Shown: positions 35,552-64,000 of the stretch, piece by piece
Numbering within the stretch: position 1 is the stretch's first letter
How the letters are laid out: each line of letters opens with the position of its first letter
IMG/VR virus record: IMGVR_UViG_3300025849_003344
Source of the DNA: a virus
Lineage: Duplodnaviria > Caudoviricetes
Direction: 5' to 3' (one strand)
Length of the DNA: 64,000 nt
The notes under the pieces: generated by a model
Seen by the model: the letters and a program-made list of their open reading frames with translations, nothing else
What the model was told of the DNA's origin: nothing
Databases searched by the model: none
Program-made: the position numbers and the translations under genes

Positions 35552-36238
35552 TTATGCGCTGTCGTTAGCTGCCGCAAGAGAGGCTACAAGAGAATCGGAA
35601 TCTCCAGGAGTTAGCCTAAACCCTACCTCGTGCGGAAGTAATCCAGCGGTTTGCCAAGCATCGACTTTATTTTCAGCTTCCGTTTTACACGAATTATATG
35701 CAGCGACTATGTCGGAATCAGCACCTGCTGAATCGTTTTCTGCTAACCACGTATTAATAGAGTTAACCACAGCATCTGCCTGATTAGCTATACCGCTCCA
35801 CGTCATCCAAGTCGTATGCCATGGATAAGGTTTAACCCATGACAAAGTTTCTTCATTCCACCGCATAGCATCTGCTTGATATGCTTTATGAGGTGGAAGG
35901 GGCCATGGATACGAATACGTGACACCATCTGGACCAGTTTTTACTTTTTGAGGAAGATCACTAATATCTGAATCTCTCATTCCCCAAAGAATAGAGGCTT
36001 CCAGCGGATTACCCAATGCATTCAATAGAAGGCATTGGTCATGGTCATTAGCATCTTCTGCATTCCATGCATCCAGCGTTGTTTCATCTACCGATTGAAT
36101 CATGCCATTATCTGATAGGTGAACGTGAAGATATTTTGGCCCGTGATATGTAAAGCTAGCTGAGGAATCATTTTCTGCCTCTTGTAGCGTATAATCGTCG
36201 GGTACTTTATACGTAAAAGTTTTTGTTACTCTAGACAT
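35552..36238 (-). CDS. Putative tail-fibre assembly or associated protein
   Basis: Last gene of the fibre operon; Trp/Pro-rich (YPWPLPP, PYPW); seven DS motifs. Confidence 0.5.
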   Translation of the reverse strand: MSRVTKTFTYKVPDDYTLQEAENDSSASFTYHGPKYLHVHLSDNGMIQSVDETTLDAWNAEDANDHDQCLLLNALGNPLEASILWGMRDSDISDLPQKVKTGPDGVTYSYPWPLPPHKAYQADAMRWNEETLSWVKPYPWHTTWMTWSGIANQADAVVNSINTWLAENDSAGADSDIVAAYNSCKTEAENKVDAWQTAGLLPHEVGFRLTPGDSDSLVASLAAANDSA

Positions 36239-36247
36239 TTTATTTCC

Positions 36248-37288
36248 TTATGAATAGCTTATTCTTATCATTCCGGGACCACCACGGGAACCACAGCAAC
36301 AGGTACCACCGCATGTAGCAGGTGTAAACCCACCTTGACCTACAGCTTGCTGGTTTGGCGCGCCCGTCGCAATAATACCTGATCCAACCATCATACATTG
36401 AAAGTAGTTGTGCACGCCGCCTATCGTATTACACCATTTAATTGCAACAAGACCACCATTTACTGAAGGTTTTTCAATATGACCCATTACAGGCAACTTA
36501 AAAAGGCCACCGGGGTAGGGAACAAATTCTTTATCGCCGCAACGCGACGCGTCAATGCCGGACGATGTCCCACAACATGATGTTTGATGGCATGCGTATA
36601 TACCCTTACTTCCCCCATCAGCACCATAGTATTTTGCTGGAGCGAATACATCGTTATCACTATCTGTCGTGGATCTGCCTAACATACAATCCATTCTAAC
36701 TGTAACGCAAGCAAAGCAGGTATTTGCGGTATGATACCCTTGACCATAAGTTGACGATGCCCAACCACAACAGACAGCAGCTCCAGGGTTTCCGCCCTCG
36801 GCGCAAAGATTGTCGAGGCCTGTTCCTGTAACATATGTTTTCATCCCCCGCGTACCGCGGCTAACAAATCCTAAGCCTTGGTCAGTTAACACTGTTGTGC
36901 CATCAGCGCAGAATGTGCGTGTGCAACAGTGTCTTTCTACACCATTAAAACACAAGGTGTATACGTCACCTGGAGTAACATCTACGGCTTTATAGGCATA
37001 AGCTCCAGATCCTCCACCCAAACCCTGTGAGCAGAGATTGGATCCAGCACCCATGCCGCCGCCACCCCACAGGTGAAATGTTGCTCTGCTAGTTCCAACT
37101 GGAACTTCCCATTTATACTTAAAATAAAGTTCGGGGCAAAGTGCATCTGACCGTATCGCGGTACAATACTGTCCCTCGACGTTGCTTCTAACTTTAAAAA
37201 AGAAGTCATTCACATCATCATCAGCGGCGTTGATATTAGGTTGATCCGCAGAATATTGACCTAAGAATGATTGTAGTTGTTTAGCCAT
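36248..37288 (-). CDS. Cys/Gly-rich adhesin-like virion protein, type C copy 2
   Basis: MAKQLQSF, FHLWGGGG, GAYAYK, NLCAEGG, TCGGTCCCG. Confidence 0.6.
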   Translation of the reverse strand: MAKQLQSFLGQYSADQPNINAADDDVNDFFFKVRSNVEGQYCTAIRSDALCPELYFKYKWEVPVGTSRATFHLWGGGGMGAGSNLCSQGLGGGSGAYAYKAVDVTPGDVYTLCFNGVERHCCTRTFCADGTTVLTDQGLGFVSRGTRGMKTYVTGTGLDNLCAEGGNPGAAVCCGWASSTYGQGYHTANTCFACVTVRMDCMLGRSTTDSDNDVFAPAKYYGADGGSKGIYACHQTSCCGTSSGIDASRCGDKEFVPYPGGLFKLPVMGHIEKPSVNGGLVAIKWCNTIGGVHNYFQCMMVGSGIIATGAPNQQAVGQGGFTPATCGGTCCCGSRGGPGMIRISYS

Positions 37289-38289
37289 TATGCTTCATCC
37301 TCATGAAATCTAATTATTTGCAGCGGGGAGGATCCAGGGGCGCCGCAGCAGCACGCGCCACCACACGTTTGGGCTGATGGAAGGCTCATCCCCTGCATCA
37401 TATAACCTGAATACTCCGACCGACCACCATAATCGCAACAGTATGTGTTCCGATGAGAGAACCCACCCATTCCTTGCTCGCAGAAATCAGTCATTCTTAT
37501 CATTACTGAACCACTTCTATAACCAGATTGCTTCCAGTTACCAAATGAAGACCACATGGGTTTTCCACAAATGCCGCTGTCACAGCGGTTAATACACGAT
37601 CCAGATTCGAAGCCATAGTTAGAAGACGCCTTACAATACACACAATCGTACCCATAATCTTCAGCGGGCGTTGGGTTTTCCAAACAGGATGAGTGGCAAG
37701 TCGCCATAGTACATCCACGACAAGATGGATGAAGCGCAGCACCGCTTGAGCCAAGTGCGCCATAATTACAGCATGGATTATAACCATAAGTACAGACACC
37801 TGCAGCGCCACATCCGCTTTCAGTCTTTATACAGTTAATAATTGTTCCACCAGCACCACCAGATCTATGCTGTACATTAGTATGACCGCTACATTTTCCA
37901 TTGCACTCCGGGGTGCAACAACCGCAACCACTGGAAACGCAAATGAATAGATGATCACTATCTCCAACCCATTGAGGAGAATATTTAGCAACGCCGCCAG
38001 ACCTACCAGATGAGCTTTGTTGGCAACAGCATGTGCCGCCTGATGGCCCACCGCCGCCAAACATATATATGTCGGTGCCACCATCTTCGAGTTTACCCTT
38101 TTTCATACTCCCGCCGCAAAACGTATGGCGCTTCCTGTCCATATGATAGTGTTGGTGGCCATAGTCTGTACCGCCGGCGCAGCCATTCATATCTGGTCCG
38201 TACGGACCAGTATATACTATAGTCTTATATTTTAAGTCAGACGTTGCCGTTATAGACCCAGGTTGAAATGTCGATAAATTTTTTGCCAT
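37288..38289 (-). CDS. Cys/Gly-rich adhesin-like virion protein, type B copy 2
   Basis: MAKNLSTFQPG, GGTCCCQ; 32 Cys in 333 aa by hand count. Confidence 0.6.
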   Translation of the reverse strand: MAKNLSTFQPGSITATSDLKYKTIVYTGPYGPDMNGCAGGTDYGHQHYHMDRKRHTFCGGSMKKGKLEDGGTDIYMFGGGGPSGGTCCCQQSSSGRSGGVAKYSPQWVGDSDHLFICVSSGCGCCTPECNGKCSGHTNVQHRSGGAGGTIINCIKTESGCGAAGVCTYGYNPCCNYGALGSSGAALHPSCRGCTMATCHSSCLENPTPAEDYGYDCVYCKASSNYGFESGSCINRCDSGICGKPMWSSFGNWKQSGYRSGSVMIRMTDFCEQGMGGFSHRNTYCCDYGGRSEYSGYMMQGMSLPSAQTCGGACCCGAPGSSPLQIIRFHEDEA

Positions 38290-39206
38290 TAGGTTCCATC
38301 CTCGAAAGTATTACAGCAGCTGTATGTTATCCTAATTCTTCCAGGACTCCAATATCCGCCACAAGCCGAGTTTCCACCGCAATGTGCTACACCTGGTTTA
38401 CCCCAACCTGCCATAAACACTTTGCCGCTTTCGGAGTTGCAAGAACCATAGAAGTCTGAAAGAATACCATCAGTAGGGCCTGATCCCCCACAACATATAT
38501 TAGTACTACTCAGCTGAAGATGTCCTATTAAATGGCCACCTCTTTTATTCCAAAGCCCACCTGGATAAGGTATACCTTGTCTATAATAGTTATAATTCGT
38601 TTGATCAAGGGCTGAGTCGATCAACTGAATAAATCCAGGATGCCCTCTAGTGCCTCCGTCAGCGCCAAAATATCTTGCTCCCTCATTTTCACTATCTTGG
38701 AACATATATTGTTTTGATCCATCTGCTGGCGCAAGATTGCAACATACTACAGAAGATGAGCATCCGTGTTCAGCACAGAAATTTGTCAACCCTGTGCCAG
38801 TAATCCAAGTGTGGCGATTGGTATTGTTACATGGCGTTGATTTTGTCGTATCAGATCCTCCATTTGGAGGATAACAGCAATATTGCCAAGCAGTATGAGT
38901 TCTATAACATGTGTTTGGAGTAACAGTCAAATATTTATATGCATACGCCCCAGCCGCGGCAGGTCCAGAGTACATACAATTGCATCCGCCACCCGGCGCG
39001 CCACCTGTGCCCCATATCTCAAACTTTACACAGCAGATATCTGCAGGCACGCAAAAGAATTGCTCATGTGTAAAATTCACACATGACCGATCCTCGTTAA
39101 AACGTGTTCTTGGAACATAATCCCATGTACAATAAGGAACTAGACCAGCAACGTCGACCGACGATGAGCCTATAGATTTTACAAAAGTGTTTAGATTCTT
39201 AGCCAT
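38289..39206 (-). CDS. Cys/Gly-rich adhesin-like virion protein, type A copy 2
   Basis: MAKNLNTFVKS, FEIWGTGG, GAYAYK, TNFCAE, KRGGHL, GRIRITYS. Confidence 0.6.
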   Translation of the reverse strand: MAKNLNTFVKSIGSSSVDVAGLVPYCTWDYVPRTRFNEDRSCVNFTHEQFFCVPADICCVKFEIWGTGGAPGGGCNCMYSGPAAAGAYAYKYLTVTPNTCYRTHTAWQYCCYPPNGGSDTTKSTPCNNTNRHTWITGTGLTNFCAEHGCSSSVVCCNLAPADGSKQYMFQDSENEGARYFGADGGTRGHPGFIQLIDSALDQTNYNYYRQGIPYPGGLWNKRGGHLIGHLQLSSTNICCGGSGPTDGILSDFYGSCNSESGKVFMAGWGKPGVAHCGGNSACGGYWSPGRIRITYSCCNTFEDGT

Positions 39207-39214
39207 ACTAATTC

Positions 39215-40294
39215 CTATTTATACGTGATAGCCACTAGGCCCATACCACCATAATCGCCACAGCAACATGTTCCGCCACATGTCCATGAACTTGCCCCAC
39301 CAACACCTATCATAGCACCACCATTATCAAATTGATTGTTAGCTACTGTTGAGCCCATCATCATCTGCCGTTCAGCGGTACCGTGCGGCCCAAACATTCC
39401 GAAGGAGGTGTTAACGCAATTCCGATAGTGATTGCCTACATGATATCCATACTTACTATTTAGTGTAGTTCCCATCCACCATTTCCCGCCAGGCATTGCA
39501 ATCCAGTGAATAAAGCTGGATTCATTACAACAGTTAGCTTCGAAGCAGCCGCAACAACCGTGCTGCCATTCAGAATGTAGTCCTCTTGACCCGCCATCTG
39601 CTCCATAGTAACAAGCAGTTCTAAATCTAGAACTATCGCTATCGTTAGGATCTCTGTCTAACATATCACAAGCCCTAACCCTAGCATCCTGTTCGAATGT
39701 TACGCCGCGGCCACCATTGGGGCCGTCAAAAAGCCGGGCACAGCCACCTCTGATATGCGCTTGAGCCGTAAAGCCAGGATTCCCGCCTTCAGCACAAAAG
39801 TTTGTAAGACCTGGGCCAGTTACATAAGCAGTGATACCTTTACATCCTGCCATAATATAACAAGTGCAACTGGCGGCCGTGGCGTCCCAGCTTTCCGCAG
39901 CCGTTCCCGGAGGGCAACAGAAATGCGCGGCTGAGGTGGAGCAAGATAATGTTTGCACATCACCTAAGCATGAAACATATCTGTCACCTGCTGAAAACCC
40001 GCTTGTTATTTTCTTATATGCATACGCTCCAGCACCAGCGTGAAAACCTTGCATACAACAATGTGAGCCGGCTCCAACGCCTCCGCTTCCCCATGCATGG
40101 ACAGTTATTTCTGAGGTCCCCGGAGGAACTATCCAAACGTCTTTAGTCCCACCCGCATTTGCGGAAGATCCATGACGCGTGATCCAGTCCACACCGGTGC
40201 CGATTTTCTGATTAGTAAACCAATGAACTTTCACCTCGGTCTCGGCAACTTGGGAAGGTGCCAAATTAATTAGAGATTGTAATGTTTTAGCCAT
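39215..40294 (-). CDS. Cys/Gly-rich adhesin-like virion protein, type C copy 1
   Basis: MAKTLQSL, HAWGSGG, GAYAYK, TNFCAEGG, TCGGTCCCG. Confidence 0.6.
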   Translation of the reverse strand: MAKTLQSLINLAPSQVAETEVKVHWFTNQKIGTGVDWITRHGSSANAGGTKDVWIVPPGTSEITVHAWGSGGVGAGSHCCMQGFHAGAGAYAYKKITSGFSAGDRYVSCLGDVQTLSCSTSAAHFCCPPGTAAESWDATAASCTCYIMAGCKGITAYVTGPGLTNFCAEGGNPGFTAQAHIRGGCARLFDGPNGGRGVTFEQDARVRACDMLDRDPNDSDSSRFRTACYYGADGGSRGLHSEWQHGCCGCFEANCCNESSFIHWIAMPGGKWWMGTTLNSKYGYHVGNHYRNCVNTSFGMFGPHGTAERQMMMGSTVANNQFDNGGAMIGVGGASSWTCGGTCCCGDYGGMGLVAITYK

Positions 40295-40315
40295 ATTATC
40301 CTACTTTTCCTAGCA

Positions 40316-41260
40316 CTATTTATACCAAATAGTAATGAATGCAGGCTGCCCCGGCCCACCGCAATAACAGTTGCCACCCGTGGCAACCGCCGGAAATCCG
40401 CCAGTTCCGGCCGTACAAATTCCGCCCATACCAAAGGATGGGTTTGTTCCCCCAAACATTCTCATGAAACCACATGTTGTGGTCCCGCCATGTTGGTTGT
40501 CTGTTTTGGTCATCGGCGCGCCGGCATAGTGTGATAAATTAGTTTTAAAATGATTGAGATCTGCAAAATGACTAGTTCCGCACAACGTATTTGGCGGGCT
40601 CGCACAACATGCTGTAACGACAAAACCTGGGCGTGATTTAAATACGTTTGCGTCTGAATCAAAAATAGCTCCTTTAGTAGTGGCTATAGAGCATGCCTGA
40701 CACCCATATACGCTTATATTGGATATCTGATTGTCTGGCTCCCAACATCTACCCGCGGTCGTGCTGCTGATATCACCCCAACAGTGGCAGAAACAATTGC
40801 TTTGGTTTTGCATATTACAGCATGATCTCGTGCATGCCGCGCCATCAGCCTTAAAAACAAGCTCACTATTAGTATCGTTATATATTTCAATCTGGCAGCC
40901 TTGTTGACCATTATCAGTTGCAACACAACAGCCACCGGCGCGGATACAGAAGCACCATTTTTCATCTGCTACAACATCTACATCCAATATTCCTGAAGAA
41001 CCTGAATTGCCAGGCACACTGGTCTGGCAACAGTTAGTACCACCTGTACTAGATCCGTTAGCCACATAAAAGAATTTAGCTTGTGTGATTCCGGTAGGAA
41101 CTGTCCACTTATATCCATGCCCACCATAATTAGGGGTACGCGGGCCTACACCGTTGTGACATCCATTCCCAGCTCTAAACGTCTGAACCTGCCAGCTGCC
41201 AAGACCTAGAGTTACCTCGCCAGCCATGCCCGGCGCAAATTGTGTTATATTTTTCGCCAT
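40316..41260 (-). CDS. Cys/Gly-rich adhesin-like virion protein, type B copy 1
   Basis: MAKNITQFAPG, GGTNCCQ, GGNCYCG. Confidence 0.6.
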   Translation of the reverse strand: MAKNITQFAPGMAGEVTLGLGSWQVQTFRAGNGCHNGVGPRTPNYGGHGYKWTVPTGITQAKFFYVANGSSTGGTNCCQTSVPGNSGSSGILDVDVVADEKWCFCIRAGGCCVATDNGQQGCQIEIYNDTNSELVFKADGAACTRSCCNMQNQSNCFCHCWGDISSTTAGRCWEPDNQISNISVYGCQACSIATTKGAIFDSDANVFKSRPGFVVTACCASPPNTLCGTSHFADLNHFKTNLSHYAGAPMTKTDNQHGGTTTCGFMRMFGGTNPSFGMGGICTAGTGGFPAVATGGNCYCGGPGQPAFITIWYK

Positions 41261-41268
41261 AGTTCCTA

Positions 41269-42177
41269 CTAACTGAATAAAATTCTAATTTTGCCCGCTT
41301 CGTTTAGGTGCCCGCATTTTGTGGTGCCGGCGCAAATTGTGTACCCAGGCGAGCCCATTCCAGCCATCTCCCAATTTTGTGGGATAGCGGATTCAAGGCC
41401 CGTTGCGATGCACATCCCCTGGTCCATATTCATACCAAGCATGCGGTACATGATCTGTGCTGAAACATCGTTACAACAAGCTGCAACTTGAATATGACCA
41501 CCTAATTTACCATAAACATTACATCCTGGTAATGGTGCCCAAAACCGAAAATTACAAAGGGATGTAGCTATACCTAGACTATTAGTTGTTAAGTACCCCT
41601 TTTCGCCACGAAGTCCATTTTCTGCTCCATAGTAACAAGCCCTATTAGGTCCTCCAGCAGAATCACCGTTTCCGTAATATGGAGTTGCACTATCAAATAA
41701 ACTAGCAGCAAAACCAAGTGTATCGCAACACACGTATCCGGAATGATAGCCAGATTGTGCACAAAAATTAGTTAAGCCAGTTCCTATAACATACGTGTCG
41801 CCATGCGCGGAATCTCTAATATCTCCAGCTAACCAAGTAGCATCATAGGTATGGCAACATCTTTTCACTCCGCCATGAATCGCGTAACAGTCGCCTGGAG
41901 TAACACTTACGGTTTTATATGCATAAGCTCCAGAGCTACTAGGAACACCTACACCACATCCAGTTCCGCCGCCCACATATCCGCCAGCCCCCCAAATATG
42001 AAATGTTGCTGTTGAAATTCCAGGTGGAACGCACCAAGATGTCCAATTCGCGCCATGATTACACGCGCACTGCCCCATGGCGGTTGGAACCCAGTCAAAG
42101 ATATGTTGGTCTTTAAATGGCAATGGGTTCCCCCCAGAAGAGAAGCTTTTTACATATCTTGATAAATTTTTAGCCAT
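41269..42177 (-). CDS. Cys/Gly-rich adhesin-like virion protein, type A copy 1
   Basis: MAKNLSRYVKS, FHIWGAGG, GAYAYK, TNFCAQ, KLGGHI, GKIRILFS. Confidence 0.6.
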   Translation of the reverse strand: MAKNLSRYVKSFSSGGNPLPFKDQHIFDWVPTAMGQCACNHGANWTSWCVPPGISTATFHIWGAGGYVGGGTGCGVGVPSSSGAYAYKTVSVTPGDCYAIHGGVKRCCHTYDATWLAGDIRDSAHGDTYVIGTGLTNFCAQSGYHSGYVCCDTLGFAASLFDSATPYYGNGDSAGGPNRACYYGAENGLRGEKGYLTTNSLGIATSLCNFRFWAPLPGCNVYGKLGGHIQVAACCNDVSAQIMYRMLGMNMDQGMCIATGLESAIPQNWEMAGMGSPGYTICAGTTKCGHLNEAGKIRILFS

Positions 42178-42203
42178 GATGTGTTCCTAAATTAATTTAT
42201 TAC

Positions 42204-42661: not shown

Positions 42662-45600
42662 TTATTTAAGATTTTTACCATCATTTTTTGTTACATCATA
42701 GATATTAAATCCCATGAATAGCTCTGTGGCTAATGCACCGGATTTAGCGTTTGCGGGTAAGGACAATGAGGATGCTCCTTCAAGCTTTGTATCCACGTAT
42801 GTCTTAACTGCTGACTCTGTAGGTACGGCCGTGGTTGAATTACCAGATAATGTGCCGTCCGTTGAGAATTCGTTAATAGAAGCACCTAGCTGAGCACCAA
42901 TCGAACCAAGTCTCAATGATGTCAAACCTGAAAGGTCAAATGCCGATGCATCCAATGTTGCTCGACCAGTCGCCTGATCAATTCTAAAGTAATTACCAAC
43001 TCTAAAGTTACCAGATTGGTCAGTAGATACGTAGTAAACGCGGCCTTGAGCCAATTCAACCACTTCATTAGCTTGTGCTGGTTGTTGGTTTGGATCTCCA
43101 GGATAATTTGTTTGTGTTTTATTACCAGTACCAATATTCAAGAAGTCATGACCTGTAAGTCTTGCTTGTGAATAGTTATATCTGATTTTTACTTGTTGTC
43201 CTTCAGCAGCAGGTCTTTGTGAAGTTTTCTCTTGAGCAAAGACTAACAGAACATTACCAGTAGCCGAGTCGTAATCAGTGACAGTTTGAATAACGTAGCT
43301 TCCGATTGAATCGTAACCTGAATCTCCTAAGTTTCCAACAAATTCTAATGATCCACCTGGTCTTGGCTTAGCGGCAGTAAATCCGTCAAACGCCATAGTA
43401 AATCCATATTGATCGTGGGCAGTATCGCTATCTGATAGAATTGCTGATACAACTCCTGCGCTATCTTCAATAGAGTCACCATCAATAAATCCAGTGCCGA
43501 TAATGTTATCGATAATAATTTTATTTGCACCTGGCTGATGATTAATTACAGTAGCTCTTGGCCCAACCGCAAAGATTTGTGCCGAGTCAAGGTCATCACC
43601 TGAGTCAGTAAGTCTTAGAGTACCACCAGATGTATATACTGAATATGACGTAGCATTTACGTCCGATGGATCTACAATCGTAAATTCACCATGTAGTGTT
43701 CCAGTTCCGCTATTTGCATAGTGAAGAGTATTTGGAGCAGAGCTGTCAACTTCAATAACCATACGGTTACCTGCTGTTGCTCTTGAATTTCTAACGCCAG
43801 TTGTATATTCGCCGCTATAAGAAACTGCTGACCATCCAGTCGAATCTGTTGTAGTTAGATAGAATGCGCCACTAACTGATGAATCAATATCAAATAGATA
43901 TTTAGAACCACGATAAAGTGTAGCATTCGGTTCAACTGAAGCCGAATATGATTGTCCGCCAATTGTACCAGTCAAAGTATAGTCTGCACCGGTTTTTGCA
44001 ACCGTAATATGACTATGTTCAGCTTCACGCAAATTAATGGTTGAAGACGTATGATCATGAACACTAAAGTGCTGGTTATTAACCTGCGTCATTCCGCCAA
44101 CGTTTTGAATGCGTAGAAGATCCCAGCTATCAAACGAATGAGATGCTACAGTTACAGTCATTGGATTTGAACGAGTAATATCTGTAATACCAACGTTCGT
44201 GACCGATCTTCCACCAATCGATGTACCATCTGCCGGATTTGACAATCCAGTATTAGTGTAAAGATCCATTGTATTTGAATCAATTATATCGGCATAATAT
44301 TCTGTAGTTTCATCAAATGAAGCCCAAGAAGCAGGAAGTTGAGGATCTACTCGAATGAGATGACCGTCTGAAAGACCGTGAGGTTCTTTTGTACCAATAC
44401 GAATGGGGCTAGATCTAGTTAAGAATGATACTTGTTTTAAACGATCTGGAGATTTAATAATTGCATTGTTTGCAAAGTCTCCTCCTAGATTTGTACCATC
44501 CTGATAGTCTAAGCTATAACCACGAACATTACCGTTGTTTGTTGTTTCTGTAGAATCGAATCCGTATGAAACAGCGCCATAACGACCGTAAGAGTTGTTA
44601 CCGTTTAGAGCACGAATAAATCCACCGTCCGATGTTGCATATCCAAAATCGCAATAATAAGTAAAGCATGATACAATCTCAGCTTTACCATTTCTTCGTA
44701 CCCAGAAACCAACACCGCCGTCATGAATTTGTGTATATGTGTGGAATACCATTGATCCATTGTTATTTGGATCGTTATTCAAACCACCATCAACAATTGC
44801 TCCAATACCTCCGGTTGAAAAGGCAGAACATTCTTTGATATAAGGAGATTTTGTAATTACCGCAGCTGGATCTAGTCGTAAAAATACACCACCGACTGTA
44901 GCTGTTTCAATGTGATCTGGTCCATTAGAATCTGGAATAAATCCAGTTAGTCCAGATAAAACAAGCTCTTTCATTAAGACACCATTGTTCAATAAGAACA
45001 TGGTTTCTTGTTCATCGCCAGCTTGTGGTTTAATAAAGCAGTTACGTTGGCCAGCGCCCATCACAGTAACATTTGTTGGAATTGTAATAGGAAGCTGTTC
45101 TTCGTAAGATCCTTCGGAAATATGAACCACCGCAGTTGAATCTACATTTTTATTTGCAGTAATGTGATCCATTGCATAACGTACAGATGCAAATGGTTTT
45201 TGTTTTGATACGCCTGAAGACGCACTATCGATTCCATCCGGAGATATATAAAAAGTATTTGGTGAGTTATCAGTATAGTCTAACAAAAAGCCTGACGCAT
45301 CGTTTTTAACAACAATAGATTTACCAACATCACCCGCTGTAATTGTAGGAAGAGCTCCTGAACCACCAGCAGCAAAGACTGTCCATCTACCGTCTGACTC
45401 ATCATTAGCAAAGTTAGACGTCGACGTATGAGTATTTTGCGCAATGTACGATGATGTACCAGATTGAATAATATCGTTTACGACATAAAGGGTGGATTGT
45501 CCCCAAGTTCCTCTATTTCGAACACCTTCAGCAAACGCTACAATTTTACTTGAACTTAAGTCGGTTGCAAAAGTTCCTGAAGTGTGAGCTTGTTCTACGA

Positions 45601-54268: not shown

Positions 54269-54893
54269 CCAATTCCTCATACGTAGTCACTGTGGCACCC
54301 CATGGGTCTTCATGTTTTTTTGATTGTACAAATGAAGGTGGTAAAGTTTTAAATTTAAAATCTTCATGGGCTAAAAATCTATCCATACCTCCAGAATATT
54401 TTCTCATATAGTAGTCACGAAATCCTGTGTTAAAGTGTTCCCATATATCGTGATGTCTTCCAGCAGTCCATGTCATAATAGAACTATGAATGTTTACGTC
54501 GTAGCTAGATAGTCGACCATATCTTTTTTTATTATCTTTCCAAGGCGCTGCGCATAAACTAAGCATATCCCAATCGTGAAGCTCAAGGGCCTTAAAAATG
54601 CAATTATTCACTGCAACATCTAAGTCTAAATAAATAGTATTACCGCTAAAAGGCATATCCGGATCAAACAGTCTAAGTTTATTCCAAACGCCTTTTAACG
54701 TGGGATCTTTCTTTTCATTGATTACTTTTATGCTAGGGTGCAAACCCTCAGGATTATCTGTATAACAATAAAACTGATATTGCGATGTAGTGTAATATGA
54801 ACGAGAAAAATATCCGATTGCCGAATATATTTTATTTACAAATTCAGAATCGTATTTAGTTCCAAATTTAACCGTGATTATGTTGTATGTCAT
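54243..54893 (-). CDS. GT-A fold glycosyltransferase
   Basis: ITVKFGTKY..EFVN, FYCYTD, WNKLRLF, IYLDLDVAV (DxD), HSSIMTW. Confidence 0.7.
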   Translation of the reverse strand: MTYNIITVKFGTKYDSEFVNKIYSAIGYFSRSYYTTSQYQFYCYTDNPEGLHPSIKVINEKKDPTLKGVWNKLRLFDPDMPFSGNTIYLDLDVAVNNCIFKALELHDWDMLSLCAAPWKDNKKRYGRLSSYDVNIHSSIMTWTAGRHHDIWEHFNTGFRDYYMRKYSGGMDRFLAHEDFKFKTLPPSFVQSKKHEDPWGATVTTYEELDVRLEDLI

Positions 54894-56010
54894 AATATGC
54901 TGCAAATAATTCAGGTATACTTTTTGCTTTACGTACTTTCATTTTTAGTTTACGGTCTTTATGATTTTTTACTTCAGGTAAATTAAAGATTACCAATTTA
55001 GTTTTAAATACAGTATCTTCATCTTCTTTATTAGTTACTAGGTATTTAGCAACATTTTCAGGATTAATTTTTTCTTCAGTAGAACTAGAGCCTAATTTAA
55101 ATTTATCCATAAAGTTTTGTTTTATATTTTTTATTTCTTCACTTTTGTAATCTTCTACTTCATCATATCGCTTTTGAAACTCTACATCTAATTCTGACTG
55201 CAATATACCTAGTTGTTCTGATCTATAAGCATCCGCCTGCTTATATCTTTCCTCAACTTGAACATCTAATTCTGATTGTAGAATTTTTAGCTGAGAGTCA
55301 CGATATTCATCAACATCTTTAAACCCTTCAGAAACTCTACGTTCCACTTGTTCATCAAGCTCTTGTTGTAGAACTTCTAATTGTTCTTTTTTGTACAACT
55401 CTACTTCTTTATAACGTTCTTCAATCTGTAAATCAACTTCAGATTGCAGTACATCTAGTTGTTCTTGCTTATAGGCATCAGCTTCAGATTGCAGTACATC
55501 TAGTTGTTCTTGCTTATAGGCATCAGCTTCTTTATAACGCTTTTCTATTTGTTCATCAACTTCTGCTTGAAGAATACTTAGTTGTTCTTCTTTGTATTTG
55601 TCAACGCCTTTAAATCCTTCAGAAACTCTATATGACACTTGTTCATCGAGTTCAGCTTGTAAAATTTTAAGTTCTTTTTCTTTGTATTTTTCGAAAAGCT
55701 TATAACGTTCTTCGTCTTGCTTGTCTAATTCAATTTGAGCATTTATTACCCATTCATCGAACATGGACTTTGCTGCATCATGAAGGGTTCTATTTTTACG
55801 ATTTTCTAGAGAGCTATAATAATTTTTTGTTCTATCTTGAATATTTTCAATAGTAAACTCATCCAAGAGATCTAAGAAATCTTGGTTATTATAATTTAAT
55901 TCTAGAATATAAGAATGCGTTTGATCATCTATTCCATATAGAATCTCAATAGTTTTTTCTTTTTGATCTACAAATTTAACATCTTGGATCTTGTTAGAAA
56001 ATCTTGCCAT
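54868..56010 (-). CDS. Coiled-coil repeat protein of unknown function
   Basis: About seven YKxEQLxxLQxExDxQxExRYKExDx units of 15-30 aa. Confidence 0.7.
   Translation of the reverse strand: MARFSNKIQDVKFVDQKEKTIEILYGIDDQTHSYILELNYNNQDFLDLLDEFTIENIQDRTKNYYSSLENRKNRTLHDAAKSMFDEWVINAQIELDKQDEERYKLFEKYKEKELKILQAELDEQVSYRVSEGFKGVDKYKEEQLSILQAEVDEQIEKRYKEADAYKQEQLDVLQSEADAYKQEQLDVLQSEVDLQIEERYKEVELYKKEQLEVLQQELDEQVERRVSEGFKDVDEYRDSQLKILQSELDVQVEERYKQADAYRSEQLGILQSELDVEFQKRYDEVEDYKSEEIKNIKQNFMDKFKLGSSSTEEKINPENVAKYLVTNKEDEDTVFKTKLVIFNLPEVKNHKDRKLKMKVRKAKSIPELFAAYYDIQHNHG
55437..55530. repeat. Perfect 45-bp in-frame tandem duplication
   Basis: cttcagattgcagtacatctagttgttcttgcttataggcatcag twice plus 4 nt; encodes ADAYKQEQLDVLQSE. 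Confidence 0.92.
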
Positions 56011-56023
56011 AATAAACCTTTCA

Positions 56024-57058: not shown

Positions 57059-57060
57059 AA

Positions 57061-57447
57061 TTAAGTTCCAGCTGAATAAAGTGTCTTTAAAGCCACTCCT
57101 GATGAGTCATAGATTATTAATGTTTGCAGGTTTCTAAGATGTTCACTCCCAACTTCATCATCACCAATTTTAGCTGCTACAACTGCACCGTTTGCGATAT
57201 CTGAAGTATTAACTGGAAACGTGCCGCCAATTAAAGAAATGGTTTGCGCTGAATCCAAAGTTGCAATTGCATCAACCTGAGTTTGTAACAAGCCTAAATC
57301 AGAATCTAATTCATTAATAGATTCTACAAGGTCGGAATCTCCAGTAGTTGTAAGAAGATCCAAGTCTCCGACTTTATAACTTAAGTCGTTAAACTTTTCT
57401 CTCCATGCGCTAACTAAGTCATTTAGATCGACATAAATTCTAGCCAT
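57061..57447 (-). CDS. Short fibre or collar-like protein
   Basis: N-terminal DLVSAWREKFN (fibritin/gp9-like start), GDLDLL...DLVESINEL, IANGAVVAAKI repeat. Confidence 0.5.
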   Translation of the reverse strand: MARIYVDLNDLVSAWREKFNDLSYKVGDLDLLTTTGDSDLVESINELDSDLGLLQTQVDAIATLDSAQTISLIGGTFPVNTSDIANGAVVAAKIGDDEVGSEHLRNLQTLIIYDSSGVALKTLYSAGT

Positions 57448-57673: not shown

Positions 57674-57674
57674 T

Positions 57675-60600
57675 TTAAACTGCCAAAGCTATTACTCTTA
57701 GGTCCTTAAATGTTGGAACTCTTGCATTATTAGTAGATGTCATTACAAGTTTAATAATAAATCTGTTAAATGGTACTGCCAATCCACCTTGACCACCAAC
57801 AATAAATTGGTAATCTCTGAAAATTGCTGGATTTTCATCAGAAGGAAGATTAACTTCCCGCTTAACTTCTACCCAGTCAACATCTTCAAATCTAGCGTCA
57901 TCACTAATTGCTTTATAATACATTTCAAAATTTGCAACTGATGGACGGTTGGCACCAAGAATAATTTTAAGACCAACAGAAGCTTCTGCTAAAGTTACAG
58001 GTCTTGTGATATGTTTCGATATTATAGTGCCACCAGTTTTGTCTGTTTCTGCAATGAAGTTTAACGGAGTATTAATATTTGTTAAAGAGGATCCATCAGA
58101 ATCTGGATTATCAATTCTATTGTGCGTCAACCAAAGAGCAGCACGTTGCATATCAACAACCGGTGATACATATTCGGACGCTGTTTCTAAATCAACTTTG
58201 ATAGTTGCTGATTTTTCTCCGGATGCTAGATTTGCAGTTTCAATATAATCTGAAGCGATAACTCTAGGCGCATTGAAAATATTTCTATTACGAAGCGCTA
58301 AAGGAGAATAAGCTAAATCTTGACTATATGCAGTCTCAGAACCGGCAATGGACTTACCTGTCATAAATTTACCTGATACAGCTAAAGACGTAGACTGCGG
58401 AAGATTAGTTTCAAGATACGGCCAAACTTCTTCGAATGGAATGTTTTGGCTATTTAGAACTGCAAACCCTCCAATTGATTTTGTTAATGTAGCATTGCCA
58501 CTAGCTTCAACCGTAAAGTTGTCATGATCAACCGATGTGATTTCTCTTGTTCCTAAAATATCAGTGCCGTCAAGTCCTGCATAAGTAAGAGCTGAATCAA
58601 AACCATAAATCTTAACGTCGTCTCCAGCAACAAATCCATGATCTTCATGATTAATTGTTAATGTAGCATCTCCGCTTACTGCAGAGATAGGATCTACGTT
58701 AAGCAGGCGCAACGGAACGGTACCATTTCTCATAATAATTTCTGCATTATCAGTTGAGAATTTAGCTCTCTTGATTTTAAACATAAGATCTTTTGCTTGA
58801 TCCGGTTCCCATGTTGAACCGTTTTGTGACTTAAACAATGATCCCATTGCAGGCTGAGATGTAATACGTTTTTCAGTAGAATTAAGAATAAATTCTTCTG
58901 TTTCTGCGATATAGACGTTATAGCTATCACATTCAGAAAGAAGAACTACTGAATATTCTTCGTATGGCATTAGGAAGACAGGCTCTTCGAATGTGAATGT
59001 TGTTACTGCTGTAGCATCATCAGACACATTAATATTTGAAGGAGATTTAAATACCACTGAACCTGGCATGATTTCGTCAGAAGCAGGAACGCCATTAACC
59101 GTTGGACGCAACTGAAGTTGTGCCGGAATAATATCGTCTTTTGAGTTAAAGTAAATATCTACACTGGTAATAAACACACCATCTTGATCGCTTACAAAGA
59201 ATGTCTGAGCAAGAGGATCAGCTTGTCTTATTGTACGAGGCGGAGTAACGACTACACCATTAACTCGACGTTCGCCTGTAGCGACATTCCAAGAAGTAAC
59301 TGATATACCTGTTCTTGATCCTGTTACGCTAGAACTAGAGTTGCTAACCGTACTTGTTGCAACATTTCTAACTCGAGTAGATCTGACAGTGCGTTGTCGT
59401 GTTTCTAAAACACCTTGAGCTACGTACGCTGCAATTGCCATAGACGTTGCGTTTTCTTCATTATTACCTGAAATATCAAGCAGCTTGAATTCTCTCACAC
59501 CAGTACGGAATCGTTCTGTATCAGTATTCGGAATAAAGAATTCGCCTTCTACTTTACCTTCATTATCAGTAAACAAAGATGTTCCGCCGCCATCAGGATG
59601 ACCGGTGTTTCTATCATACCTATTGCCTGCTTCATTGTCTGTTGCAGAAATTCGAGTAAAGCTACCGGATCTAACCCAATTATCGACGCCTACTCCATCA
59701 AAAAATGGGAACATTCTGTGATTTGGCTTTAACCCTTCGGCTCTAAAGCTGACTCGTCGAGATCTCATAAACGGTATCATTGCAACATCGACTACTCTAT
59801 CACCTACGACGCTTCGAATAGTGGAGAAAGATGCAACTCGTGCAACGGCAGTTCTTGTAGTTACAGTAGTAATGTCAGTTGTAGTCGTACGCGTAGCTGT
59901 TGCTCTCCAATTACCTGCTGCGCCATTACCTGTTGCAGTTGAGGTCCTACTACTATTGCTGGTCGATGAGCCTAGACTTTGTTGTCTAGTATCACCAGTT
60001 GAAGTACCACCCCAATTCCATTGTGAATTATTAAACAGCTGAGCTTGGCTACCGCTTATTCGAGTAACAGTACCGCCACTAATCACATTATCAGCAATAC
60101 GTTGCGTCTCTCTCCAATCATCTGAAGCTGGTGAAAGAGTTACGACGCCTTGGTTAGTGATAACATTAAACGGATTAATGTTCATTGTCCCAGAAACTTG
60201 AGGTTGATTTAAGTAATCAACTTCACTAAATTTCATGTAAACGTTATCACCTTTGATAACAGTATTTGTAGACAAATCAGAATCGTAAATAAGCCGAATA
60301 TTTTCTTCTCTGAAAGAAGGTCTTAATATTTGTGCCTGAGGATCAATAGATGCTCTATACTCAACGTTATTAAAATCTGTAGCAAGCTGATCTTGGAAGT
60401 TATCAACTAAGAATCCAGCCTTTGTTCTATCATTGCCTGTAGAATCAAAGACTGCAAAGTTAGATAATCCAGTCTCTAGTAACGATAGTGTTGTAAGTTC
60501 AAATAGGTTATCAACCTTTTTCTCGATAGAAGAAATATCATCCATAGAGAATTTTTTCTTATCGATAGGAATACTACCAACGTCTGAATCGTCGATTGTA

Positions 60601-62909
60601 AACGGAGCCATATTAACGTCAAATAAGTTTAAGGTATTTTCAGGAATATCTGGATATTGCGGCTGAAGATCAGATCTGCCTTTGATGTTAAATATGTTTG
60701 CATCTTGGTCTATAACAAATCTATCAAACCTAGGCAAATAATATTCAGCGTCAGCTGTGATAAGATCAGTATTTGTTGGCAATTCGTTAATACGGGCTGT
60801 ACCGCCGGTAAAGTCAGAGTCTTTATCAGTTTTACGAGGACGGAAATCTAAAACGTTTCTTAGTTCAACTTTGTTTCCGTCATTCAATGTGTGAGATGGA
60901 ATATCACCGTAATTTACCTGACCGGTATATGAGTTAACAGCGAAGAAGTCGCCAGACGCACCATGCTGAAAATATCTAAATCGTGCAAATAGATCGCCGG
61001 TTGGAGCTGTTTTGTTACCCTTTAATATGAGACGTGCAGGACCATACCAGTTATCGCGTTGACCGTTATCAATAATAAAGTCATTTAATCTATCGGCGCC
61101 GTCGGAATCAGAATCTCTTAAACGATCGAGTTTAAATAGATCTGGTTTTTCTAGCTCAAGGAATTTAAGGCCATTACCATCAGACTCAACTACACCTGAA
61201 ACTGTTGTTTCCAAGAGAGTCTTTGTGCGAACAGAACCTGAAGACTTGTTAACTTTTGTAATAACCTCAACGTTCGTGTTTGTTGGACCATTTGAAAGAG
61301 CTGCAGATTGGCTACCTGAGCCAGTGATTGTTGGAGTAATAATTTCACCATCAGAATCTACTGATACAATCCAATCTCCAGTATTTGCAAACGTCTCACC
61401 GGTTGCTGTAACTGTAAGAGTAGCCTGACCTGACGCATCGAATGTTGCGTTAAATTTACGTTGTACTTCTAAGGAAATATCAGATAGCGTTTTAGGTCTA
61501 GTAAAAGGTAATTCAAATAGTAGGTTATTATTACCAATATCGTTTAGAATAGCGTTTCCGTTATCTAGTAAGATGTCTGCATAATCTAGAGCTGAACCAC
61601 CGATTGAACGTACATCAGAAAACTTTTGGCCAGAGTTCATTACGATATCAAAAATGTATATTCTAAAATTAGCACCGTCTTCTTCGATATATCGTGAACG
61701 ACAAGTACCAATCGTAGATCCGCCATGTCCAGTTGCGCTTCTTAAGTTACGAACTTGGAAAACGTTAACGTTAGGAGTACCAACAATAGTATCACAAATT
61801 ATGTAATTACCATAGTTTGCAGCAACAACTTGGTTATTTAGATTAGATGTTTCTTGAGCCTTTGCAACTCTAATTCTTGTAGGATATTGTTTTTCTGCAC
61901 GATAACCATTAACATACGCTAATCCAGGAGAGACTACTGCTCTCAAAAAGTTAGCATTTGAATCATCTTCAAAGTTTAAGATAAAGGGTGAAATTAGGAA
62001 ATCGCCGTTAATATCTTTTGTACGTTGAGCCATACGATCTTCGATGGCTTTGTATTGATTATTACCGGTTACAATATCAAAAATAACACCATTAATAACA
62101 CGACAGAAATATACAAAGTTTTCATCGGAATCTACTTCATCATCTGTTGCAATAATTAATCTGATTCTATAGCGATCAGCTCCAGGAGCTGAGGTATTAG
62201 GAGTAGCTCCCTGATTATCATATAATGCTTCAGCGTCTGTAGAAGAAACAATGTCTTGAGTTATCTTAAACCCAACTGTTACAGTAGGCAAAGATGTATA
62301 TTTACTGATAATTTTAGATTGTTTAGCTACAAAAACAAAATGTCCTTGTACAAAGAAATCACCCTTTTCGATCGAAATACGAGAACCAAATCCTGTAGCA
62401 GGATTTACAACAGTATCAGTTGCCTGTACTGTAAGAGTAACACCAGAATTTGTTCCTACAACATCTTCACTTGCAGTTACTGTTCTTGAAGTATCGAACG
62501 TTGTTGCGTTAAGTGTATCTGTATATCTTACATATAATGTTGCCGGATCGCTAGCGGTAGCCGCAACTACTTCTAATACTATAAACTTAAAGGTTGAATC
62601 TTGGCCAGTAAACTCATCTCCCACGATTGCGGTAGTATCAACGGGAAGCGTATTTGTTGTCGTATCGAGTTTAATAAATTCATATCTGGTATTTAGTGTC
62701 GGTCCGCCTGGATTTACGGAAGCGCCTTCTTTAAAAATATTACGTCCAAAGCGCTCAATCTCTTTTTGAATAATAGTTTGCATCTGGGTAAGCTCTCTTG
62801 CTTGAAGAGCTTTACCAGCGTTAAACAATACTCTATAGTAATTGTCACTGTCTTTATAATCATCTTTATACGTATTGCTAAAGAGATTCTCTGTAAATCT
62901 GTTTGCCAT
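57675..62909 (-). CDS. Large baseplate-associated virion protein (DUF4815/VrlC-like)
   Basis: YKDDY...YYRVLF..GKALQARELTQMQ, APGADRY, GFLVDNF, NPFNV, PLAQTF, LFKSQNGSTW, VPTFKDLRVIAL. Confidence 0.85.
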   Translation of the reverse strand: MANRFTENLFSNTYKDDYKDSDNYYRVLFNAGKALQARELTQMQTIIQKEIERFGRNIFKEGASVNPGGPTLNTRYEFIKLDTTTNTLPVDTTAIVGDEFTGQDSTFKFIVLEVVAATASDPATLYVRYTDTLNATTFDTSRTVTASEDVVGTNSGVTLTVQATDTVVNPATGFGSRISIEKGDFFVQGHFVFVAKQSKIISKYTSLPTVTVGFKITQDIVSSTDAEALYDNQGATPNTSAPGADRYRIRLIIATDDEVDSDENFVYFCRVINGVIFDIVTGNNQYKAIEDRMAQRTKDINGDFLISPFILNFEDDSNANFLRAVVSPGLAYVNGYRAEKQYPTRIRVAKAQETSNLNNQVVAANYGNYIICDTIVGTPNVNVFQVRNLRSATGHGGSTIGTCRSRYIEEDGANFRIYIFDIVMNSGQKFSDVRSIGGSALDYADILLDNGNAILNDIGNNNLLFELPFTRPKTLSDISLEVQRKFNATFDASGQATLTVTATGETFANTGDWIVSVDSDGEIITPTITGSGSQSAALSNGPTNTNVEVITKVNKSSGSVRTKTLLETTVSGVVESDGNGLKFLELEKPDLFKLDRLRDSDSDGADRLNDFIIDNGQRDNWYGPARLILKGNKTAPTGDLFARFRYFQHGASGDFFAVNSYTGQVNYGDIPSHTLNDGNKVELRNVLDFRPRKTDKDSDFTGGTARINELPTNTDLITADAEYYLPRFDRFVIDQDANIFNIKGRSDLQPQYPDIPENTLNLFDVNMAPFTIDDSDVGSIPIDKKKFSMDDISSIEKKVDNLFELTTLSLLETGLSNFAVFDSTGNDRTKAGFLVDNFQDQLATDFNNVEYRASIDPQAQILRPSFREENIRLIYDSDLSTNTVIKGDNVYMKFSEVDYLNQPQVSGTMNINPFNVITNQGVVTLSPASDDWRETQRIADNVISGGTVTRISGSQAQLFNNSQWNWGGTSTGDTRQQSLGSSTSNSSRTSTATGNGAAGNWRATATRTTTTDITTVTTRTAVARVASFSTIRSVVGDRVVDVAMIPFMRSRRVSFRAEGLKPNHRMFPFFDGVGVDNWVRSGSFTRISATDNEAGNRYDRNTGHPDGGGTSLFTDNEGKVEGEFFIPNTDTERFRTGVREFKLLDISGNNEENATSMAIAAYVAQGVLETRQRTVRSTRVRNVATSTVSNSSSSVTGSRTGISVTSWNVATGERRVNGVVVTPPRTIRQADPLAQTFFVSDQDGVFITSVDIYFNSKDDIIPAQLQLRPTVNGVPASDEIMPGSVVFKSPSNINVSDDATAVTTFTFEEPVFLMPYEEYSVVLLSECDSYNVYIAETEEFILNSTEKRITSQPAMGSLFKSQNGSTWEPDQAKDLMFKIKRAKFSTDNAEIIMRNGTVPLRLLNVDPISAVSGDATLTINHEDHGFVAGDDVKIYGFDSALTYAGLDGTDILGTREITSVDHDNFTVEASGNATLTKSIGGFAVLNSQNIPFEEVWPYLETNLPQSTSLAVSGKFMTGKSIAGSETAYSQDLAYSPLALRNRNIFNAPRVIASDYIETANLASGEKSATIKVDLETASEYVSPVVDMQRAALWLTHNRIDNPDSDGSSLTNINTPLNFIAETDKTGGTIISKHITRPVTLAEASVGLKIILGANRPSVANFEMYYKAISDDARFEDVDWVEVKREVNLPSDENPAIFRDYQFIVGGQGGLAVPFNRFIIKLVMTSTNNARVPTFKDLRVIALAV

Positions 62910-62918
62910 TTAATTGCC

Positions 62919-64000
62919 TTACAGCTGAATAATAACTTTAATATCTTCGGTTTGGTTCGGGTCTCTTTCGATAGCCGCTCTATTATCTACATATAATAAA
63001 TCTCCGGTAAACGGTTTAACTGTAGATTTGGTAAATGCATCATCATCGCCGTCAATAGAAGCAGAATCTAAAATACCTTCACCATTACCATCAGTTTCGG
63101 TAATAGTTTCACCTTCAATAAACGTGAAATATCCTGTAGAATCAGTCTGATGATACCAAACATAATTTGAATCGAATTTATCGATATAACCCCTTGCAGC
63201 AGAAGTGGATCCAAGAATTGTTTTATCTTCGCTAAAGTTTGCTGCGATAGAACTAAACTTCAACTTATTTAATACATTACCAGCAGTACCTGTATATAAT
63301 GCACCGTCTGCAGCTGAATCGGTTTCGTATGGGTTTTTTATAATTCCGATTTGTCTAAAATCGTTACTTGTGATTAAAGCGTTGTCTTCATCTCCGGTCA
63401 GTTTAGTATTGAACATAAGAGCCGTCGATCTTAGATCATCTCTTGGGTCAGCGCCAATACCACCTGCAGGTGCTAATACGGTTCGAGCAACAGCTCCTGA
63501 TCCGCCTCCACCCGAGAATGATACTGATGCATATGCATACCCGGCACCGTAAGCTTTACCTGAACCAGAATCTTGCATTTCAACTTTAACTACTGCTCCG
63601 TTAAATACTGTTGCAGTTGCTTTAGGAGCTTTAGTTCCGTTACCAGTAAATGAAATAGTGGGAGCTGAAGTATAACCTGTTCCACCATTGTTTAATTTGA
63701 CCGCAACTACTTCACCCGGATTAGCAGCATTCTGAATAGAATATTGCTCCTGTTCTAGAGCTGGATCAGTGGCGTCTGCAGAATCAATAAATTGAATTGG
63801 AATATAGTTAGCTGAAGTAAACTTAGTAGATCTCAAAGCCGTTTGACCGTACAGATATTTCCATACATAACCATCTGCAGTGTCAAAGGGTCTCGTAAGA
63901 GTGCCAGTAGGTTTAACTGTAGACGTAACCGCATTGCCTTGTGTATCTCTACCCTGCTGTAAACAAATGTAAACAGCAAGTTCATCTGTCATAACGTAAT
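62919..64000 (-). CDS. gp8: Baseplate wedge subunit gp8 (5' end outside the window)
   Basis: VYICLQQG, DGYVWKYLY, NDFRQIGIIKNP, GDLLYVDNRAAI.R...QTEDIKVIIQL; frame is open to the window edge. Confidence 0.9.
   Translation of the reverse strand, partial: YVMTDELAVYICLQQGRDTQGNAVTSTVKPTGTLTRPFDTADGYVWKYLYGQTALRSTKFTSANYIPIQFIDSADATDPALEQEQYSIQNAANPGEVVAVKLNNGGTGYTSAPTISFTGNGTKAPKATATVFNGAVVKVEMQDSGSGKAYGAGYAYASVSFSGGGGSGAVARTVLAPAGGIGADPRDDLRSTALMFNTKLTGDEDNALITSNDFRQIGIIKNPYETDSAADGALYTGTAGNVLNKLKFSSIAANFSEDKTILGSTSAARGYIDKFDSNYVWYHQTDSTGYFTFIEGETITETDGNGEGILDSASIDGDDDAFTKSTVKPFTGDLLYVDNRAAIERDPNQTEDIKVIIQL

Follow-up and report, generated by a model that had tools for sequence, protein, structure and literature searches.

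When one ordered pair of residues, aspartate followed by serine (DS), recurs in the tail proteins of a phage far beyond what their composition predicts, is the serine marked for attachment of a sugar, or is the pair part of how the proteins are built? The question is raised by a 64,000 nt stretch of DNA (hereafter the window) from the IMG/VR record IMGVR_UViG_3300025849_003344 (Duplodnaviria; Caudoviricetes), which encodes a DS-rich long fibre of 1680 amino acids (aa) and a DS-rich tailspike-like protein of 1316 aa. The window belongs to an uncultured marine T4-like myophage, and its core genes share 67-69% nucleotide identity with Phage C48C1, Pelagibacter phage Mosig, OM43 phage Melnitz and cyanomyophages, and the hosts of its nearest cultured relatives are Pelagibacter, OM43 and cyanobacteria. 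Tentatively, and at close to an even chance, we read DS as a loop-start or capping motif in the distal tail proteins of one clade, maintained there by selection and working unmodified.

Asp-Ser excess in two distal tail proteins

Expected counts of DS and of the reverse pair (SD), and their significance, were taken from 5000 shuffles per protein and are expressed as observed/expected ratios (O/E). The 1680-aa fibre contains 51 DS where 16.5 ± 3.7 are expected (0/5000 shuffles reach 51) and 14 SD; DS is its strongest dipeptide outlier (z 8.5), serine follows 36% of all its aspartates, and Asp-Thr (DT) lies below expectation (8 vs. 13.4). The 1316-aa protein has 22 DS vs. 9.3 expected (1/5000 shuffles reach this) and 7 SD. 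A preliminary description of the window had reported an order bias beyond composition, which is upheld, as SD is not enriched and shuffles almost never reach the DS counts of these two proteins. Its hand counts of DS (51 and 22 as above, then 7, 4, 4 and 6 in the 228-aa, 104-aa, 128-aa and gp8-like proteins) all hold, as does the scarcity of DS in gp17 and the carbamoyltransferase (0 and 1 counted); only the SD count of the fibre needed correction, from about 9 to 14.

It is very improbable that composition, repeats alone or a DNA-level motif gave rise to the excess as a by-product. The proteins are indeed rich in D, S and G, the fibre is repetitive, and GAY-TCN codon pairs make GANTC sites, 41 of them in frame 0 of the fibre gene. 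Against this stand the unenriched SD and the shuffles that never reach the fibre count. The TCN/AGY mix of serine codons is also the same inside DS as for other serines, the AGY share included, so the signal lies at the amino-acid level and a GANTC motif is ruled out as its cause. Residues ~70-657 of the fibre consist of 18 helix-plus-beta-hairpin units of ~33 aa each, with one further unit at 1551-1584, but the part outside the repeat region (661-1680) carries 29 DS vs. 8.2 expected (O/E 3.5) and is richer than the repeat part, so that duplication of the repeat is not the whole story; a hidden Markov model of the repeat found no match in the 1316-aa protein either. Loop composition was likewise rejected as the cause: the excess survives a coil-only expectation, which in the structural model of the 1316-aa protein is ~5.4 DS vs. 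~14 seen.

Distribution of the excess over the virion

The excess is concentrated in the two fibres and a few small neighbours. Core virion proteins (gp23, gp20, gp18, gp15 and others) have a pooled DS O/E of 1.12, non-structural proteins equally one of 1.12, and the baseplate protein VrlC, an internal control, is not enriched (DS 14, SD 21). The small proteins of the host recognition cluster (HRC), pooled, reach a DS O/E of 1.83, yet their SD O/E is 1.48. The proposals that DS saturates the external virion proteins, that it sets structural apart from non-structural proteins and that it underlies a particle-wide glycan shield are therefore not borne out.

In the family of the 228-aa protein, 23 of 24 homologues are DS-rich and 17 of the 24 end exactly in DSA behind a variable acidic tail; the homologues in S-CAM1, L036 and P-SSM2 have 0-1 DS. 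Orthologues of the 128-aa protein carry 4-5 DS, including that of G002, a close relative without the heptose island described below. The signals of the 104-aa protein, whose orthologues have four DS in G001 and only one in G002 and G005, and of the first of six tandem paralogues are weaker. DS-richness is common to fibre and tailspike-like protein in three more distant DS-rich genomes (L033, L034 and L043), and extends in L033 and L034 to the 228-aa homologue and the first paralogue.

Flanking context and inheritance

Once related sites had been collapsed, DS showed the same flanks in both rich families. Position -1 is W, F or Y in 20-29% of cases vs. 9-11% in the background, and position +2 is Ala in 25-30% vs. 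8% (3.2-3.7 fold), the only residue enriched there; the latter position also accepts N, D, S and G and avoids K, R, E, P and bulky aliphatics, and its share of I/L/V/M/T is 0.14-0.15 vs. 0.28-0.31 in the background. The fibre and 1316-aa families are unrelated in fold, yet share these flanks, and the pattern is absent around DT, DG, NS, ES, TS, GS and DN in the same proteins and around the DS of DS-poor 1316-aa homologues. Both DS-rich families are depleted in DT (O/E 0.48-0.52), and ES is depleted too.

All 120 best metagenomic homologues of the fibre (down to 29% identity) are DS-rich irrespective of genomic setting (O/E 1.55-3.95, median 3.2; SD ~0.8), and numerous DS positions of the family are at least 90% conserved. 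This DS-rich fibre clade is without any cultured member, and tblastn of the fibre against cultured phages gave fragment matches only. The 1316-aa family is bimodal, with 42 homologues at a DS O/E of 2.0-4.0, 78 at 0-1.5 and 0 between, and in its tree one fully supported branch separates the DS-rich proteins from the rest, without any reversal. DS outnumbers every other dipeptide in the ungapped columns of that clade, the DS columns are conserved like those of GG, and their mean occupancy is 3.9/9 vs. 1.4-2.5 for most dipeptides. Where columns can be aligned to those of the DS-poor clade, ~7 clade-fixed sites account for the excess, and the two sides have similar numbers of sporadic gains (12 vs. 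10). A shifting shield of sequons was rejected on these grounds, the DS columns being highly conserved in the rich clade and its sporadic gains equalling those of the poor one.

The flanks and the inheritance also bear on a second reading, which we regard as possible though doubtful. Here [F/W/Y]-D-S-A/small would be a sequon, and a cytoplasmic phage (possibly host) enzyme would modify its serine in exposed loops before or during assembly, most likely by O-glycosylation, perhaps followed by methylation or carbamoylation. Such a code is favoured by the extended context common to two unrelated families but lacking around control dipeptides and in DS-poor homologues, by the sharp bimodality of the 1316-aa family, by the specificity for Ser seen in the depletion of DT and ES, by the trait appearing at genome level across several families, and by the conserved terminal DSA on a variable tail. 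The high conservation of the sites, which do not shift, speaks against it, and as the DS-rich 1316-aa state has one origin, each association with a gene rests on one event.

Placement in predicted structures

In the 1316-aa protein, CBM5/12 repeats at the N-terminus are followed by a right-handed beta-helix in the centre and a conserved domain at the C-terminus, and 11 of the 22 DS lie within residues 861-1130 (O/E 4.0). The model of this protein (residues 420-1316; predicted local distance difference test, pLDDT, 76) contains a right-handed parallel beta-helix that matches phage tailspikes and pectin methylesterases; 14 of 17 DS are wholly in coil, mostly 1-3 residues past a strand end, and one DS of the protein repeats the hairpin motif of the fibre (Y-D-S-A-T-G). 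The fibre model shows a regular secondary structure in which a short helix leads into a beta-hairpin with a turn of four residues. Placement was counted over the 25 DS of the first 700 residues: six occupy the last strand and first turn residue of the hairpin (Y-D-S-x-x-G), seven the N-termini of helices (T-D-S-x-x-R) and five a loop ~six residues ahead of the next hairpin strand (DSGGLGSL and variants). At equivalent positions the remaining units carry Y-N-x, Y-D-T/N/E/P or S/T/P-x-x-E caps, and in the model this interchange of D and N at repeat positions is consistent with roles as Asx and capping residues. A Foldseek search with the fibre model gave no significant match. The fibre ends (window 47335-47400) in a Gly-rich run followed by L-F-G-Y-I-N-M.

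These placements agree with the expectation of the preliminary description in so far as DS lies in loops and turns, but the sites coincide with strand-end and helix-cap positions. The loop location suits a sequon, and the coincidence with canonical cap positions, at which D and N are interchangeable, counts against one.

As a built-in loop motif, DS would have the rough consensus [F/W/Y or aliphatic]-D-S-[A/N/D/S/G]. The Asp would end a beta-strand or cap the N-terminus of a helix (an Asx-type cap), and the Ser and the small residue behind it would start the turn. In the 1680-aa fibre the motif may have been multiplied through duplication of the helix-plus-hairpin unit, and in the 1316-aa protein it would stand at the loop starts of the beta-helix and the following domains. 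The trait would belong to the fibre modules of one uncultured marine T4-like clade and be inherited with them, and would not be imposed by the heptose/GT9-like or GT8-like islands. Support for an intrinsic motif of this kind comes from the cap and turn positions, the D/N interchange, the conservation, the inheritance by family, the single origin in the 1316-aa family and the dissociation from sugar-transferase genes shown below. The enrichment, its flanks, its modelled placement, its conservation and this dissociation are observations; the structural role and the unmodified state of the serines are inferred from them.

Several observations weigh against it. The fibre model is an AlphaFold2 (AF2) prediction for residues 1-700 from a 52-sequence alignment, with a pLDDT of 56, and depicts a monomer of what is probably a trimer. 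The flanks are identical in different structural settings (hairpin, helix start and beta-helix loops), and the clade-fixed DS sites of the 1316-aa family are DT, DV, DA, AT or G-x in the DS-poor relatives. The terminal DSA of the 228-aa family follows a variable acidic tail, a place that needs no strand or helix cap. DS-richness is shared, within the same genomes, by at least three unrelated families (fibre, tailspike-like and 228-aa), homologues in sister lineages have a DS O/E of ~1 or below, and a purely local structural role does not predict co-occurrence across unrelated families. The trait thus looks, on the genomes compared, like a property of the phage clade acting on several proteins, which is the main argument for a common recognising factor.

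A direct role in ligand contact is unlikely. In that case DS loops would bind metal ions (Ca2+/Mg2+) or host glycans, with the Asp carboxylate and the Ser hydroxyl as ligands, as a clade-specific adaptation of the receptor surface. It would suit a role of this kind that only distal host-recognition proteins show the excess, most strongly in the parts that vary (residues 861-1130 in the 1316-aa protein), that the sites are conserved and in loops, and that the 1316-aa protein combines CBM5/12 repeats with a depolymerase-like beta-helix. However, none of the known metal-binding signatures (DxDxDG, RTX and similar) was seen, DS is spread over the shaft repeats as well as the likely binding domains, and the DSA at the end of a small protein is difficult to reconcile with such a role.

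Sugar genes and the Asp-Ser excess

Glycosyltransferase (GT)-like genes do lie among the fibre genes, as the preliminary description had noted: a GT8-like gene at 52762-53679 and an island of ADP-heptose, weakly GT9-like and carbamoyltransferase genes at 27401-35458. Its further claim, that these islands modify the DS sites, fails on co-occurrence, as both the heptose/GT9-like and the GT8-like genes dissociate from DS both ways.

For the heptose/GT9-like island, two close syntenic relatives, G002 (135 kb) and G005 (31 kb), have core proteins 82-93% identical to those of the window and are without the kinase, the HAD phosphatase, the carbamoyltransferase, the GT9-like gene, the 228-aa protein and the paralogues; despite these missing genes their fibres have a DS O/E of 2.9-3.2, with the 1316-aa homologue at ~1.0-1.2. 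In the other direction, the island adjoins DS-poor fibres in S-CAM1, P-SSM2 and AG-345-P14 (DS O/E 0.5-1.05) and in L036. The 1316-aa-type fibre and the GT9-like, carbamoyltransferase and heptose genes are found in exactly the same cultured phages (S-CAM1, S-CAM3, S-SSM7, S-SSM6a, Sf-FS3, P-SSM2, P-SSM5 and the AG-345 viruses), in the same gene order in the three loci examined (S-CAM1, P-SSM2 and AG-345-P14), which looks like an old fibre-plus-sugar module linked whatever its DS content. Among the 1316-aa genes examined, the island accompanies 8/8 DS-rich vs. 4/9 DS-poor ones. The 8/8 arises because fibre and island form a linked module, in DS-poor cyanophages as well, and since the rich state also has one origin, we rejected the association.

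In all close relatives with a locus long enough to show it, the GT8-like gene stands upstream of the DS-rich fibre, a proximity that favours a sequon, and it accompanies the fibre in L033-35 and L043 as well. Its sole cultured homologue, however, is in Pelagibacter phage Mosig, the fibres of which have a DS O/E of 0.5-0.9, and the distant DS-rich fibre of L044 (O/E 2.66) has no GT8-like gene within 10 kb and a 1369-aa neighbour with a DS O/E of 0.16. Adjacency of the GT8-like gene as the cause was rejected, as Mosig and L044 contradict it. Remote members of the GT8-like family occur in radical-SAM cassettes that are not close to fibres.

If the serines were modified, the candidate enzymes would be those of the 52762-54905 cassette (GT8-like, DxD and methyltransferase-like), the GT9-like protein with the ADP-heptose and carbamoyltransferase island, or an unrecognised open-reading frame (ORF) such as that at 54868-57058. 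The dissociation of both recognisable GT families from DS in both directions is a point against the sequon, and neither the ADP-heptose/GT9-like island nor the GT8-like family appears to explain the motif. Because the DS excess does not follow the sugar-transferase genes, a built-in loop motif is somewhat likelier than a sugar-attachment code. What stands of the original interpretation is a selected motif with its own flanks, in accessible loops of distal tail proteins; what falls is a GT-driven shield.

The GT8-like family has ~200 representatives with invariant D123-x-D125, H289 and K293; PF01501 is matched by 24 of 47 sampled members (best 1.3e-5), the 305-aa protein of the window itself gives no match, and a profile search of the PDB gave none for the family. 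Conserved beside the GT8-like gene are the 211-aa ORF and the 220-aa ORF, which contains the motif YLDLD and weakly matches the GT8-like family by profile. In L039, L040 and L042, GT8-like members lie in radical-SAM/SPASM cassettes and some are tandem fusions of 520-577 aa; the L040 cassette also has TauD, cupin and Asp/Arg-hydroxylase genes, and its contig carries the curli genes CsgG/CsgF. The GT9-like protein is sub-threshold (PF01075 E 0.005, 16.6 bits with a cut-off of 22; NCBIfam RfaQ E 0.0046) and matches only over its C-terminal nucleotide-binding stretch; its cysteines are at positions 3, 22, 43, 78 and 232 with no CxxC, and a PDB sequence search gave no match. No GmhA was seen in the window. 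Within the sugar gene set, a heme oxygenase and a ferredoxin-dependent bilin reductase (29045-30287, minus strand) interrupt the series, and this pair is retained in relatives that have lost most heptose genes. A 294-aa ORF (28178-29062) that adjoins the cupin has an N-terminal carbamoyltransferase domain only; both are kept in G002, which is without the full-length carbamoyltransferase.

Layout of the host recognition cluster

The features discussed are collected in Table 1. From the VrlC border the minus strand encodes, in order, the 128-aa fibre-like protein, ORFs of 344, 380, 220 and 211 aa and the 305-aa GT8-like protein, then the 116-aa assembly-like protein, the 1680-aa fibre, proteins of 112 and 104 aa and the 1316-aa tailspike-like protein, and finally a 141-aa gp9/10-like protein, the six phrog_4205 paralogues, the 228-aa protein, the GT9-like protein and the carbamoyltransferase; the ADP-heptose-type gene set follows next on the plus strand.

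Table 1. Positions of the fibre, sugar and border genes in the window
Feature	Position	Strand	Remark
gp14-like neck gene	25727-26599		
gp13-like neck gene, other HRC end	26601-27356		
ADP-heptose-type genes: cytidylyltransferase, cupin, half carbamoyltransferase, PfkB kinase, epimerase, HAD phosphatase	27401..32637	+	
606-aa NodU/CmcH-type carbamoyltransferase	32683..34503	-	
324-aa GT9-like (heptosyltransferase-like) protein, phrog_8954	34484..35458	-	
228-aa protein (phrog_9740)	35552..36238	-	DS 7, ends in DSA
Six tandem paralogues (phrog_4205)	36248..42177	-	GC 46%; group not DS-enriched
1316-aa tailspike-like protein (P0002)	42662..46612	-	DS 22
104-aa protein, just upstream of the 1316-aa gene	46634..46948	-	DS 4
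1680-aa long fibre (P0001)	47335..52377	-	DS 51, O/E 3.1
116-aa protein resembling L-shaped tail fibre assembly protein	52393..52743	-	always directly upstream of fibre
305-aa divergent GT8-like GT-A glycosyltransferase	52762..53679	-	invariant DxD
211-aa (methyltransferase-like by eye only) and 220-aa ORFs	53645..54905	-	no family matches; weak assignment
128-aa fibre-like protein	57061..57447	-	DS 4
VrlC/DUF4815 baseplate protein, left HRC border	57675..62909	-	DUF4815 match
gp8-like baseplate protein, cut by window end	62919..63992	-	DS 6, SD 0

The 116-aa assembly-like protein is the immediate upstream neighbour of the fibre homologue in all loci that include the position, among them distant L044 (48% identity), and is also found in L038. 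The ORFs at 53645-57058 have no matches in Pfam, PHROG or NCBIfam, those of 344 and 380 aa among them gave no family match, and an ESM Atlas search with the 380-aa ORF gave none. The phrog_4205 paralogues differ in base composition from their surroundings (GC 46% vs. 35-40%); four of the six share a similar tail, C-G-x-x-G-x-x-x-I-x-I-x-Y/F, and relatives have 3-5 copies of varying length. VrlC has a bias opposite to that of the fibres (SD 21 vs. 11.2 expected, a count reached by 16/5000 shuffles).

Significance of the motif

Pelagimyophages and cyanomyophages prey on the most abundant bacteria of the ocean, and their HRCs are full of unexplained sugar genes. A bimodal, clade-wide trait of receptor-binding proteins with its own flanking consensus offers a concrete, testable handle on them. 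New in this work are the DS-richness of 120/120 fibre homologues, the bimodality of the 1316-aa family, the context shared by unrelated families and the terminal DSA of the 228-aa family. Were the serines modified, DS would be the first sequon-like code for the decoration of phage tail fibres, and the HRC sugar genes, now assumed to remodel host lipopolysaccharide, would be read differently; dozens of fibre loops and the C-terminal tail of a small partner protein would be decorated, under a code distinct from the Bacteroidota motif and in an abundant, wholly uncultured marine T4-like clade. Were they unmodified, the loops of the fibres would follow a building rule that is new and specific to the lineage. 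The negative result on the ADP-heptose/GT9-like island and the GT8-like family matters in either case, as neither accounts for the motif.

Comparison with known systems

A literature search returned no publication describing the DS motif or such a sequon in phages, which weighs against a sequon. Freeman 2023, which is cited in PMC12801897, is said to describe glycosylation of mycobacteriophage virions, one precedent for a sequon. In the closest genomic setting, the HRC of pelagimyophages and cyanomyophages is a hypervariable block from VrlC (DUF4815) to the neck genes in which tail fibres are accompanied by sugar genes, those of GT8 type among them (Zaragoza-Solas et al. 2020, PMC7029224). The window has the identical layout at 26.6-62.9 kb, with fibres and GT-like genes between VrlC and the neck genes; the differences are that the GTs are read in that paper as modifying host O-chains and that the DS motif is not mentioned there.

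Two other precedents favour a sequon, and each resembles the present case only in part. O-glycosylation in Bacteroidota acts on exported proteins, tail fibres assemble in the cytoplasm, and the host of this phage is probably not a member of the Bacteroidota. The general motif of that system is D-(S/T)-(A/I/L/V/M/T) (PMC8550257); DS is like it in having Asp just ahead of the candidate acceptor Ser and in favouring Ala next. Thr, however, is unused here (DT O/E ~0.5), the DS-rich clade having DS where its poor relatives have DT, and at +2 Ala alone is enriched and I/L/V/M/T are depleted. The link between DS and the Bacteroidetes sequon drawn in the preliminary description is accordingly not supported; the resemblance appears partial, and the motif not a member of that class.

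The second precedent is cytoplasmic heptosylation of serine. TibC is reportedly 406 aa long, longer than the 324-aa GT9-like protein of the window. TibC and AAH are cytoplasmic, ADP-heptose-dependent enzymes that decorate many serines on beta-helical autotransporter adhesins, and the features of these bacterial autotransporter heptosyltransferases (BAHT) are an N-terminal beta-barrel, a thumb formed by a beta-hairpin, and an iron finger with four Cys (PMC4358343). The window likewise carries a set of ADP-heptose genes and encodes a GT9-like protein and a tailspike-like protein with a beta-helix; in contrast, the 324-aa protein, without CxxC, has no apparent iron finger and little room for the N-terminal beta-barrel, and islands of the window type accompany DS-poor fibres in the four loci named above.

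The remaining two comparisons lie closer to an intrinsic motif. In the Asx-turn or helix N-cap, Asp or Asn stands at a strand end or helix start and is followed by Ser or a small residue, and the interchange of D and N at the hairpin position of the fibre is of the same kind. Such motifs are universal, however, and do not explain a ~3x use of DS relative to sister clades with the same folds. The cyanomyophage module of S-CAM1, S-CAM3, S-SSM7, P-SSM2 and P-SSM5 has a homologous 1316-aa-type fibre, after which come small proteins, ~300-aa paralogues, a GT9-like gene, a Nol-like carbamoyltransferase and heptose genes. It differs from that of the window in the trait itself, as the examined fibres of S-CAM1 and P-SSM2 (and of AG-345-P14) are DS-poor.

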